40,816 bases of DNA from a virus (lineage: Duplodnaviria; Heunggongvirae; Uroviricota; Caudoviricetes), in the IMG/VR virus record IMGVR_UViG_2563366884_000001, positions 1 to 40,816 of that record, one strand, 5' to 3'. Positions 3,158-34,335 of this stretch are shown piece after piece. Every line of letters begins with the position of its first letter. Positions within the stretch are counted from its first letter, which is position 1. The notes below the pieces were generated by a model. That model worked only from the letters and a program-made list of their open reading frames with translations, did no database searches and was not told where the DNA came from. The translations under genes and the position numbers were made by a program.

Positions 3158-3181
3158 ATAAAAAAACCGCCATCAGGCGGC
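3158..3181 (-). terminator. Putative rho-independent terminator (minus strand)
   Basis: Hairpin CCGCC-ATCA-GGCGG followed on the minus strand by a 6-7 T run. Confidence 0.45.
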
Positions 3182-3522: not shown

Positions 3523-4380
3523 TCAAAGTGGAGGTTCTGGTAGAGGCATCCAGTGTGACGGTTTCCACGACGCACCAGGAATTATCCAACCATCATTAGC
3601 GTCAGGATGCTCCGGGATGTAAGTCGCCCATTTCATTCGCCAGTCACCTTTCCTGTCAAACTCCTTGGCAACAAGAACGGCTGTTTTGGTATCCGGCATT
3701 CGCTCACTACAGCTTATCCACCCCCCCCCCGGAGTTACCGGAGAGTTGCCTGCCAGTCTACGCAAAACAGCCTTAACAGCCTCAATACGGTCATCATCGT
3801 AACTTTCCGCCGTATCTATGCGGTCGAGCATGATGATTGCGTTATCAATATCAGGATTGCCGGTCCACTCATTACCGCGATTGGATTCGGCAGCCTGGTT
3901 GCCGCGTACTGGTTGATTGTCGGCTTTACCCAGTCTGTCGTCGCTGCATGAATGCCCTTCCAGCCAGGCCAATGCTTGTCGCATGAAATACGCAATATGT
4001 TTGCCGTGGTAATCGTCTTCATCGATGTGAAAAGCGATACTACGAATGTATTCAATTGCGTTTTCAATGGCCTCTAACGCTATCGGCGCTGGCGGAGTGG
4101 TGTATAGTTTTCGACATTTGTATATCCAACCGGCATGGTCAGGCGTGTCTGTAAAACGCAAATCGTCTTCGTAGCACTCACGACTACGTTCTTTCCATTC
4201 CGTCCACGGAACACCGCTATTCCAGGTGGGGCGAGTGCAGGACTGATACAGAACAGGCTCTGCTTCCAGCGATGCCAGTGCGATTTCATAAGCACGGCGC
4301 TCAATATCGTCTCGCACGTCCAGGCTGCCGATTCGCTCTTTGATTTCTTTAATCAGTTCTTTGTCGGTAAAAGTGCTCAT
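3523..4380 (-). CDS. Phage protein with C-terminal DUF551-like domain (285 aa); contains a G10 tract
   Basis: AAGGAGAG SD before Met at 4380; C-terminus GGGWISCSERMPDTKTAVLVAKEFDRKGDW resembles DUF551; 10-nt homopolymer at 3721..3730 encodes the GGG. Confidence 0.55.
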   Translation of the reverse strand: MSTFTDKELIKEIKERIGSLDVRDDIERRAYEIALASLEAEPVLYQSCTRPTWNSGVPWTEWKERSRECYEDDLRFTDTPDHAGWIYKCRKLYTTPPAPIALEAIENAIEYIRSIAFHIDEDDYHGKHIAYFMRQALAWLEGHSCSDDRLGKADNQPVRGNQAAESNRGNEWTGNPDIDNAIIMLDRIDTAESYDDDRIEAVKAVLRRLAGNSPVTPGGGWISCSERMPDTKTAVLVAKEFDRKGDWRMKWATYIPEHPDANDGWIIPGASWKPSHWMPLPEPPL

Positions 4381-4381
4381 C

Positions 4382-4807
4382 TCACTCTCCTTTGATGCGA
4401 ATGCCAGCGGCGCGTGGCACATTAACTTCCACGATGCGCACAGTTGGTTTGTACATCTCAATCGCTGTCAGCCAGTCAGCGCCAGTCATGCGCTTTTCTG
4501 CATCGCCATTAGTCCACTTAACCGGTACACCAATAGCCTTCATCGCGATTTCTATTTCCCCGGCAATGGCGCTTTTTCCGCAACCAGTAAAACCAGAAAC
4601 AACGACAAGAACTTCGCCTTTGGCTGGTTTTATTTCCCGTGCTTCCAGTTCTGCAATACGCTTTTTGTCTGCTTCCCGTTCATCCAGTAGTGCCAGCACA
4701 ATCGATGGTGTTACCAGCTCATGGAAAAGGTCCGCGTCAAATCCCCAGTCGTCATGCATTGCCTGATCTGCCGCTTCACGCAGTGCCTGGTAATTAATTT
4801 CGCTCAC
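4382..4807 (-). CDS. Ea22-like protein (141 aa) with Walker-A-like motif GFTGCGKS
   Basis: N-terminus MSEINYQALREAADQAMHDDWGFDADLFHEL and C-terminus ...GIRIKGE resemble lambda Ea22 as I recall it; GTG start with GGAGG SD. Confidence 0.5.
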   Translation of the reverse strand: MSEINYQALREAADQAMHDDWGFDADLFHELVTPSIVLALLDEREADKKRIAELEAREIKPAKGEVLVVVSGFTGCGKSAIAGEIEIAMKAIGVPVKWTNGDAEKRMTGADWLTAIEMYKPTVRIVEVNVPRAAGIRIKGE

Positions 4808-6018: not shown

Positions 6019-6333
6019 TTAATTTATTCGTATGCCTGCTCTTTCTTCATCGAGTTTTTTTAGCTTGTATCGCATAGCCCTTACTGAATAAATTGAGCGG
6101 CAGGTTGCAATTGCTATTTCTTCTGCGGAGAACTTACCGAAAAGTGATACTTCTGCTCTTGTCCAGCGTCTTCCACGAAGTCGGCTAACAATGTCAGCGC
6201 CAATCCTTGTTGCTTTCGCCATAACTGCTTTTTCAGTCCTTTCCAGTTTTTCAGCAATAACTTCAACTGGCATTGTCGCCGATACTTCGCGCAAGAAATC
6301 GACTTCCCATTTCTCCCATGGAGTCTTTTTCAT
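6019..6333 (-). CDS. Hypothetical protein (104 aa), basic, possibly nucleic-acid binding
   Basis: ORF in the leftward early operon; Arg/Lys-rich. Confidence 0.45.
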   Translation of the reverse strand: MKKTPWEKWEVDFLREVSATMPVEVIAEKLERTEKAVMAKATRIGADIVSRLRGRRWTRAEVSLFGKFSAEEIAIATCRSIYSVRAMRYKLKKLDEERAGIRIN

Positions 6334-9815: not shown

Positions 9816-9845
9816 GGAAATAAAAAAAAGGGGCGAATGCCCCCC
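9816..9845 (-). terminator. Rho-independent terminator directly after the repressor gene
   Basis: Minus strand GGGGGGCATTCGCCCC followed by a 9-T run, abutting the c2 stop codon. Confidence 0.6.
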
Positions 9846-33852: not shown

Positions 33853-34335
33853 TTATTTTATAGTTTTTATGAATTCTTTATTAAATCCCTTCGCTTCTCC
33901 GGGGTATCTTCCGAAGACAATTTTTATAAAAACAGAAAAAATAAAGATAGCAACGCTTAACAACAATTGCAGTATCATTGGAACCCAAAGAACTACAGGC
34001 TCTATATTCATGAAACCAAATATTCTTCCGGCGATCATGGCGAAGTACCACACTGTTATCAGCAAACTTAGTGGCATATGAATTACTGATATTACCAATC
34101 CAAGAGCATCAGTAATTCTGTTTTCAAATTTTTCAGGGGAAAACTTTTCTTTAAGGTAATTCAGTGCGCAGGCCTCATTCTCTGGATTTTCAGCATTTTT
34201 CCCTATAGCAATAGAAATCTCAGATATCCTTGATTCAATTCTTTTACGTTTAATAAAACTAGAAAAAAAGAACCACGCAATCTGCAACCCTATCCCCAGA
34301 AATAGAGTTGCGGCAACTAGCACAGCGTAACTCAT
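33853..34335 (-). CDS. Multi-pass membrane protein (160 aa), low-GC moron at the sieA-equivalent locus
   Basis: TAAGGAGGT SD before Met at 34335; three or four hydrophobic helices; markedly AT-rich codon usage compared with flanking phage genes. Confidence 0.6.

Follow-up and report, generated by a model that had tools for sequence, protein, structure and literature searches.

A slippage-prone G10 tract in a DUF551 gene of an Escherichia coli prophage: probably an accidental toggle between full-length and truncated protein

Introduction

Slipped-strand switching is a familiar phenomenon in Haemophilus, Neisseria and Campylobacter. For Escherichia coli, the only example in the literature that we searched is neuO, a gene on a prophage related to the one analyzed here. 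Carried by prophage CUS-3 of E. coli K1 and described as a "mobile contingency locus", neuO contains a poly-psi heptanucleotide repeat (PMC9659370, and the papers of Vimr, Deszo and King cited there). Slipped-strand changes in the length of this repeat shift the gene in and out of frame; switching has been demonstrated, and the trait that is switched, O-acetylation of the capsule, protects against K1 phage.

Poly-G tracts reportedly recur in the genes of Campylobacter phages, whose host is said to lack canonical mismatch repair. In the work of Sorensen et al. (2021, Cell Rep 35:109214), as it is cited in PMC11868660, these in-gene polyG tracts are hypermutable, and variation in their length gives rise to subpopulations with different protein products. 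Homopolymeric tracts are likewise associated with phase variation and microevolution in Bordetella pertussis (PMC1891110) and Neisseria (PMC5084427): the G/C runs found within open reading frames measure about 8 to 12 bases, many tracts occur per genome, and close isolates differ by length polymorphisms that switch the frame.

Here we analyze a run of ten G's within a gene of a 40,816-base stretch of prophage DNA, referred to below in its entirety as the window. As in neuO, the repeat is embedded in the coding sequence of an accessory gene that is not essential, the carrier is a P22-like E. coli prophage, and the repeat travels with the phage; by analogy, the working mode of the gene would be that of a simple-sequence contingency locus, most like neuO on CUS-3. 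It differs from neuO in that the repeat is a mononucleotide run situated at three quarters of the gene's length, so that in the OFF state a truncated protein would still be made and the gene would not be a null; in addition, the tract is present in only a tiny fraction of alleles, and its toggling is predicted from sequence. With the genes of the Campylobacter phages, as far as that work is cited, it shares the in-gene run and the prospect of different protein products, whereas its host is a mismatch-repair-proficient E. coli and the tract is not conserved among homologues. It also resembles the tracts of B. pertussis and Neisseria in length, in location and in frame-switching polymorphism among close relatives, but the window contains only a single such run. 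Our analysis indicates that the G10 tract is probably an accidental example of a simple-sequence contingency locus.

Results

The window, a mosaic lambdoid prophage of the P22/HK620/Sf6-like type, matches scaffold KB733149.1 (E. coli KTE194, GCA_000352805.1) at 100% identity; about 46% of the left half of the window is shared with CUS-3, at 97.5% identity. The gene order is RecT, Sipho_Gp157, several small genes, DUF7446, Ead/Ea22, the DUF551 gene that contains the tract, a lar-like gene, a 114-aa gene, xis and int, and beyond int there is a host gene with a match to the pectinesterase family of Pfam. The DUF551 gene is an early-left accessory gene, located upstream of xis and int and transcribed in the same direction; it occupies positions 3523..4380 on the minus strand and encodes a 285-aa EaA-like/DUF551 protein (GenBank ELH17309.1, E. 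coli KTE194). The open reading frame as such spans 3523..4461, and we took the coding sequence from the ATG at 4380, the likely start codon, which directly adjoins the stop codon of Ead/Ea22, the gene upstream.

On the plus strand, the tract is a run of ten C's at 3721..3730, flanked by an A at 3720 and a G at 3731 (...CAGCTTATCCA-CCCCCCCCCC-GGAGTTACC...), which reads as G10 on the coding strand. It corresponds to nucleotides 651-660 of the coding sequence, that is, the last base of a Pro codon followed by three GGG Gly codons, within the encoded stretch ...SPVTP-GGG-WISCSERMP, where Gly3 lies in the presumed linker immediately ahead of DUF551. No other G/C run in the window is longer than six bases; under an i.i.d. 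model, about 0.03 C or G runs of at least ten bases are expected per window, and the longest G/C run across 1.15 Mb of related IMG/VR prophage loci is 9. The initial annotation, which had described a C10/G10 tract coding for Gly-Gly-Gly in a DUF551 gene, was right in every detail, and its remark that the tract is unusually long is borne out by these values. The longest A/T runs of the window (A8, A7, T7 and A7, at 9822-9829, 3160-3166, 6055-6061 and 34263-34269, respectively) are unremarkable for its base composition. The related IMG/VR loci contain further G/C runs, 8 or 9 bases long, at L098 496-504, L119 311-319, L133 1622-1630, L084 4146-4153 and L140 7682-7689, and at one site found both in L072 (7455-7462) and in L156 (4198-4205); all of these sites are unrelated to the DUF551 gene.

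Residues 1-216 of the protein (3733..4380, minus strand) constitute the EaA-like N-terminal module, with residues 35-217 almost invariant among homologues. Residues 220-284 (3529..3723, minus strand) match DUF551 (PF04448) over model positions 1-67 of 68 with 74.9 bits (E = 9e-21), above the gathering cut-off of 22, which places the protein among the DUF551 proteins. In the literature, DUF551 appears only as a portable domain, which is also found in YfdS, in an Ea22 variant (Ea22_V2) and in MazZ. Comparisons that might give a clue to function returned only PHROG matches of 'unknown function' and no PDB relative, PADLOC match or NCBIfam match for the 285-aa protein, and none of these four comparisons gave an indication of a surface, restriction or receptor role. 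The AlphaFold model, built with 63 close homologues, is poor (mean pLDDT of 48), with values of about 70 to 88 confined to residues 1-40 and the DUF551 part. Gly3 falls at the end of a low-confidence stretch of this model, a predicted placement that is compatible with an inter-domain linker without proving one.

We modelled the effect of tract length on the reading frame. Besides G10, only the lengths G7 and G13 among those modelled keep the frame. Loss of one base or gain of two (G9 or G12) leads to a TAA stop at 3714..3716 (minus strand), so that the product ends after PGGGG(G) at 221 or 222 aa, while loss of two bases or gain of one (G8 or G11) leads to a TAG stop at 3707..3709 (minus strand) and a product of 223 or 224 aa with the tail PGG(G)VDKL*. 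In the shifted frames translation would stop after 1 or 4 codons, and a one-base change thus truncates the protein before DUF551, as the initial annotation had stated, and leaves the N-terminal module. The gene contains one of the features that characterize a contingency locus, namely a slippable tract within a coding sequence where length alters the reading frame.

The sole start codon available to the orphaned domain in an out-of-frame allele is an internal ATG at the start of DUF551 (Met228, 3697..3699, minus strand), from which RefSeq annotates a 58-aa ORF (WP_248698864.1); at most, and speculatively, the orphaned DUF551 might be re-initiated there. An early stop could in principle exert a polar effect on xis and int. 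In lambda, P22 and other lambdoid phages that have been studied well, the early-left transcripts are anti-terminated, and for this reason we expect little effect of this kind.

The same tract is found well beyond the window. Exactly ten G's are present in at least five independent assemblies and in two unrelated prophage contexts: in the window (GCA_000352805.1; L050), in GCA_032901485.1 (L051), in an ENA metagenome scaffold (L052), in GCA_013040725.1 (L173) and in SRR8040851 (L174). The identical 285-aa protein is encoded on other contigs too (L051 and L052), all of them with exactly G10. In proteins, the Pro-Gly-Gly-Gly-Trp junction occurs in at least five backgrounds, with differences both before and after the tract: the junction is combined with a different N-terminal leader in P0123, with different C-terminal ends in P0124 and P0125, and with a quite different DUF551 subtype in P0057. 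The DNA encoding P0057 (L173 and L174) belongs to an unrelated prophage with YfdP- and DUF2303-family (YfdQ-like) genes, and there, too, the run is exactly G10.

In relatives, the DNA that flanks the tract, CCGGTAACTCCGGATGGT|TGGATAAGCTGTAGTGAGCG (window 3697-3745; L184-L205 junctions), is conserved even across different N-terminal modules, which places the tract exactly on a mosaic module joint. The N-terminal modules that meet DUF551 at this conserved joint are unrelated to each other (EaA-like, Ead/Ea22 and dATP/dGTP pyrophosphohydrolase), and BLAST matches to the window gene end near the tract position. Judged from these alignments, the site looks like a recombination joint at which DUF551 modules are shuffled.

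In close homologues, the ten G's are replaced by the 7-nt sequence GGATGGT (CCG GAT GGT TGG, Pro-Asp-Gly-Trp). All 120 IMG/VR loci with the same flanks have non-repetitive 7-nt alleles, which on the plus strand are ACCATCC (87 loci), ACTATCC (16), GCCAGCC (5), GCCATCC (5), ACCACCC (3) and three rarer ones. The allele ACCACCC corresponds to GGGTGGT on the coding strand (Pro-Gly-Gly-Trp), is also carried by L193, and is plausibly an initial step on the way to a G run. Among the 216 family proteins retrieved, 156 have DG or DS at the junction and 6 have GGG. We found the tract allele in none of 5,426 complete E. coli genomes, nor among PLSDB plasmids, INPHARED phages, IMG/VR or JGI metagenomes, and a 16-mer scan of GTDB representative genomes gave 44 chance matches, none of them enterobacterial. 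A conserved repeat, as evolved mutability would entail, is not what these data contain; judged from the homologues, G10 is a rare, recently arisen, derived allele and not a conserved switch.

The length of the tract is not fixed among close relatives. Contig DABTJZ010000001.1 (GCA_014629915.1; L181), found among contigs that carry the Ead/Ea22 neighbour of the window gene, has G11 in a gene that is identical to that of the window on both sides of the tract, with 99.83% identity over 2,333 nt for the locus. Its frame ends in ...PGGGVDKL*, and the G11 site is located 640 nt from the contig end, that is, well inside the contig. Look-ups with other neighbours of the window gene gave no length variant beyond G11.

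We also modelled the truncated products expected for each tract length in known backgrounds, and matched them by exact sequence among about 15 billion proteins. P0137, a 221-aa protein encoded on a 20-kb Logan contig, is exactly the predicted G9 product (...SPVTPGGGG). Its tail demands nine bases of the form GGGNGGNGG before TGGATAA, and its N-terminus is common with that of the G10 protein P0123; given this common background, G9 is much the simplest reading of P0137. A second protein of the same cluster, P0146 (223 aa, ...SPVTPGGVDKL), is found in ENA on 8 contigs, the longest of 418 kb. Its tail fits G8, but GGGTGGT with one inserted G would give the same tail, which makes this the weaker evidence. 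Exact look-up of 23 further modelled products (G6 to G13, four backgrounds, orphan ORFs) returned P0137 only: in-frame G7 or G13 products and other out-of-frame products were not found in the backgrounds tried. In protein searches, a profile for the frameshifted tails recovered only 4 irrelevant short proteins, and the truncated product as query gave no new truncated cluster representatives.

Close relatives thus show a frame-changing polymorphism of tract length, with G11 read as DNA and with G9 and a G8-compatible length known from deposited proteins; in principle, all three could be homopolymer errors of their assemblies. The initial annotation had suggested comparing tract length in related prophages, and had named homologues without a homopolymer as one half of what would refute a switch. 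The comparison has a divided outcome: the lengths do differ, as expected from slipped-strand mutability, while such homologues, with GGATGGT for Pro-Asp-Gly-Trp, are almost universal. In-frame and out-of-frame contigs number about 12 and 10, respectively, a ratio that is silent on selection either way because the contigs are non-independent and pseudogenes are under-counted in NCBI annotations.

The four near-identical prophage copies (window, L051, L052 and L181) are separated by 1, 1 and 3 (clustered) substitutions, plus one change of tract length, over about 6.5 kb of prophage DNA. As a rough estimate, this suggests that the tract changes of the order of 10^3 times faster per site than its surroundings, which agrees with the finding that indel rates in E. 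coli climb exponentially with homopolymer length (PMC8510543).

A second poly-G site is located in the N-terminal leader of related DUF551 genes, where eight IMG/VR loci form an allelic series with fixed flanks. Five loci (L215-L219) carry GGGGTGCGG, which encodes Ser-Leu-Gly-Val-Arg-Asp in frame; in GGGGGGCGG (L214 868-908), one T-to-G change has produced a G7 run that is still in frame; and two G9 alleles, of 10 and 11 nt, have lost the frame and leave ORFs of 26 and 35 aa (L120 5166-5174; L220 11164-11206). Read as steps of one series, these alleles show a route within the DUF551 family by which substitutions would merge short G runs, slippage would expand the merged run and the gene would become frameshifted. 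The process is the same as the one envisaged for the window site, and amounts here to homopolymer-driven pseudogenisation. The two sites differ in outcome: the second has only an in-frame G7 and dead G9 alleles, whereas at the window site an expanded G10 is back in frame and has spread.

Discussion

We consider it likely that the G10 tract is genuinely slippage-prone and that it switches the protein, by accident and not under selection, between a full-length (on) and a truncated (off) form. Of the phase-variable switch that the initial annotation had proposed, the slippage-prone tract that toggles the protein stands; an evolved, conserved contingency locus is not supported, the tract being absent from nearly all homologues.

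We infer the following order of mutational steps. Starting from the ancestral linker CCG GAT GGT TGG, substitutions towards G, with GGGTGGT as an intermediate, would have merged short G's into a run in one allele lineage of the mosaic EaA-like + DUF551 gene, and replication slippage would then have lengthened the run, so that the series would proceed from GGATGGT to GGGTGGT, by further steps to G7, and from there to G8, G9, G10 and G11. The expanded run would have come back in frame at G10 and would then have been spread by recombination. In the window, the in-frame G10 would yield a two-domain protein with a Gly3 linker. A one-base slip at G10/C10 during replication would cause the ribosome to meet TAA or TAG after 1 or 4 codons, and the product would be the N-terminal module alone, 221 or 224 aa long and without DUF551; a later slip would restore the frame, making the toggle stochastic and reversible. 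Such a toggle would be a mutational by-product, and may be a step towards decay of the gene.

The most serious alternative is that the tract is a selected, mobile contingency locus, in which stochastic attachment and removal of DUF551, or on/off switching of the activity of the entire protein, benefits the prophage or the lysogen under fluctuating conditions. We regard this as unlikely, although several observations speak for it. The natural lengths of 8 to 11 cover both frames, and neuO provides a precedent on a P22-like E. coli prophage (PMC9659370) with which the window shares sequence. Moreover, a run of exactly ten G's is retained across five protein backgrounds, and in both the P22-like (xis/int) and the YfdP/DUF2303 contexts; this shows persistence and spread by recombination, which is not the simplest expectation for a fast-decaying neutral accident. 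Against selection, nearly all homologues lack the tract, as do all 5,426 complete E. coli genomes, which means that the repeat is not a conserved property of the gene. No surface, restriction or receptor role is indicated for the gene, and the second poly-G site, with nothing but an in-frame G7 or a dead G9, looks like decay. Finally, the tract is 3'-proximal, 76% of the way along the coding sequence, so that the OFF state keeps most of the protein. A more specific form of this proposal, which we hold to be somewhat more doubtful, is that G10 is a mobile selected locus at a module boundary, coupling and uncoupling DUF551 and the EaA-like module, and is passed between unrelated prophages. If that were true, phase variation by a mononucleotide repeat would be described for the first time in a gene of a lambdoid coliphage.

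That the tract is an assembly or sequencing artefact in the window itself, a hotspot of the kind the initial annotation had allowed for, has a negligible probability: homopolymers are classic error hotspots and no complete genome searched has the allele, but NCBI, Logan and ENA assemblies that are independent of each other, from different strains and from a metagenome, share the ten-base run together with identical flanks, and we reject this explanation. Homopolymers of about 10 bases are known sequencing trouble spots, and G10 could be a stable, neutral in-frame variant (an Asp-Gly to Gly-Gly-Gly polymorphism) if G11, G9 and G8 were all sequencing or assembly errors. It is true that all five assemblies retrieved through the intact protein have exactly G10, and that each out-of-frame length is represented by a single assembly or source. 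However, retrieval through the intact protein returns in-frame alleles only, which makes the uniformity of G10 partly circular, and the three out-of-frame lengths come from three sources (NCBI, Logan and ENA), one of them on 8 contigs and another well inside its contig rather than at its end. The independent second poly-G site behaves alike, and a stable run of this length would be at odds with the exponential rise of E. coli indel rates with run length (PMC8510543), all of which makes a stable variant improbable. The last possibility is recoding, in which a single allele would give two products by programmed ribosomal frameshifting or transcriptional slippage. The sequence G GGG GGG permits perfect re-pairing of tRNA-Gly in the -1 frame, and homopolymers can also make RNA polymerase slip. 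Nevertheless, both alternative frames run into a stop within 1 and 4 codons and hence offer no extended alternative product, predicted folding of the 100 nt downstream does not exceed that of shuffled sequence (z = +0.30), and the run is wholly absent from homologues, which argues against a conserved recoding function. The site therefore lacks the properties of a recoding site, and we consider this explanation highly improbable.

If the tract is, as we favour, a genuine but accidental toggle, it offers a natural snapshot of how a contingency locus is born, or fails, within a gene of an E. coli prophage. It would illustrate how such a tract can arise from nothing: G runs merge, slippage expands them, the frame is regained, and recombination spreads the result. 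Because the allele is very rare and the function of its gene unknown, the biological importance of the toggle is modest unless a phenotype is found.

A practical consequence is that the tract site is a predictable source of assembly differences and annotation disagreements. Existing annotations of the gene clash: the protein has 285 aa in GenBank (ELH17309.1), whereas the RefSeq entry WP_349235989.1 starts at Met133 and covers only the last 153 aa, and in the G11 strain (L181) no gene is called at the locus. Close homologues in a P1-like plasmid (L002 1482-2363) and in a complete chromosome (L003 1324-2196) are split by PGAP into 'incomplete' DUF551 fragments and pseudogenes; these homologues nonetheless align with the window protein in a single frame (tblastn), and the fragment calls may reflect an internal stop codon, a different leader module or a problem with the start codon.

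A further difference between strains concerns the DNA adjacent to the prophage. The prophages of the window and of L051 are the same, separated by a single substitution over about 3 kb, and the pectinesterase-family host gene next to them (window about 523-1284; L051 3124-3885) differs at 19 positions, or about 2.5-3%. These 19 differences would be explained either by recent movement of the prophage between diverged E. coli lineages or by recombination of the attachment-site flank.
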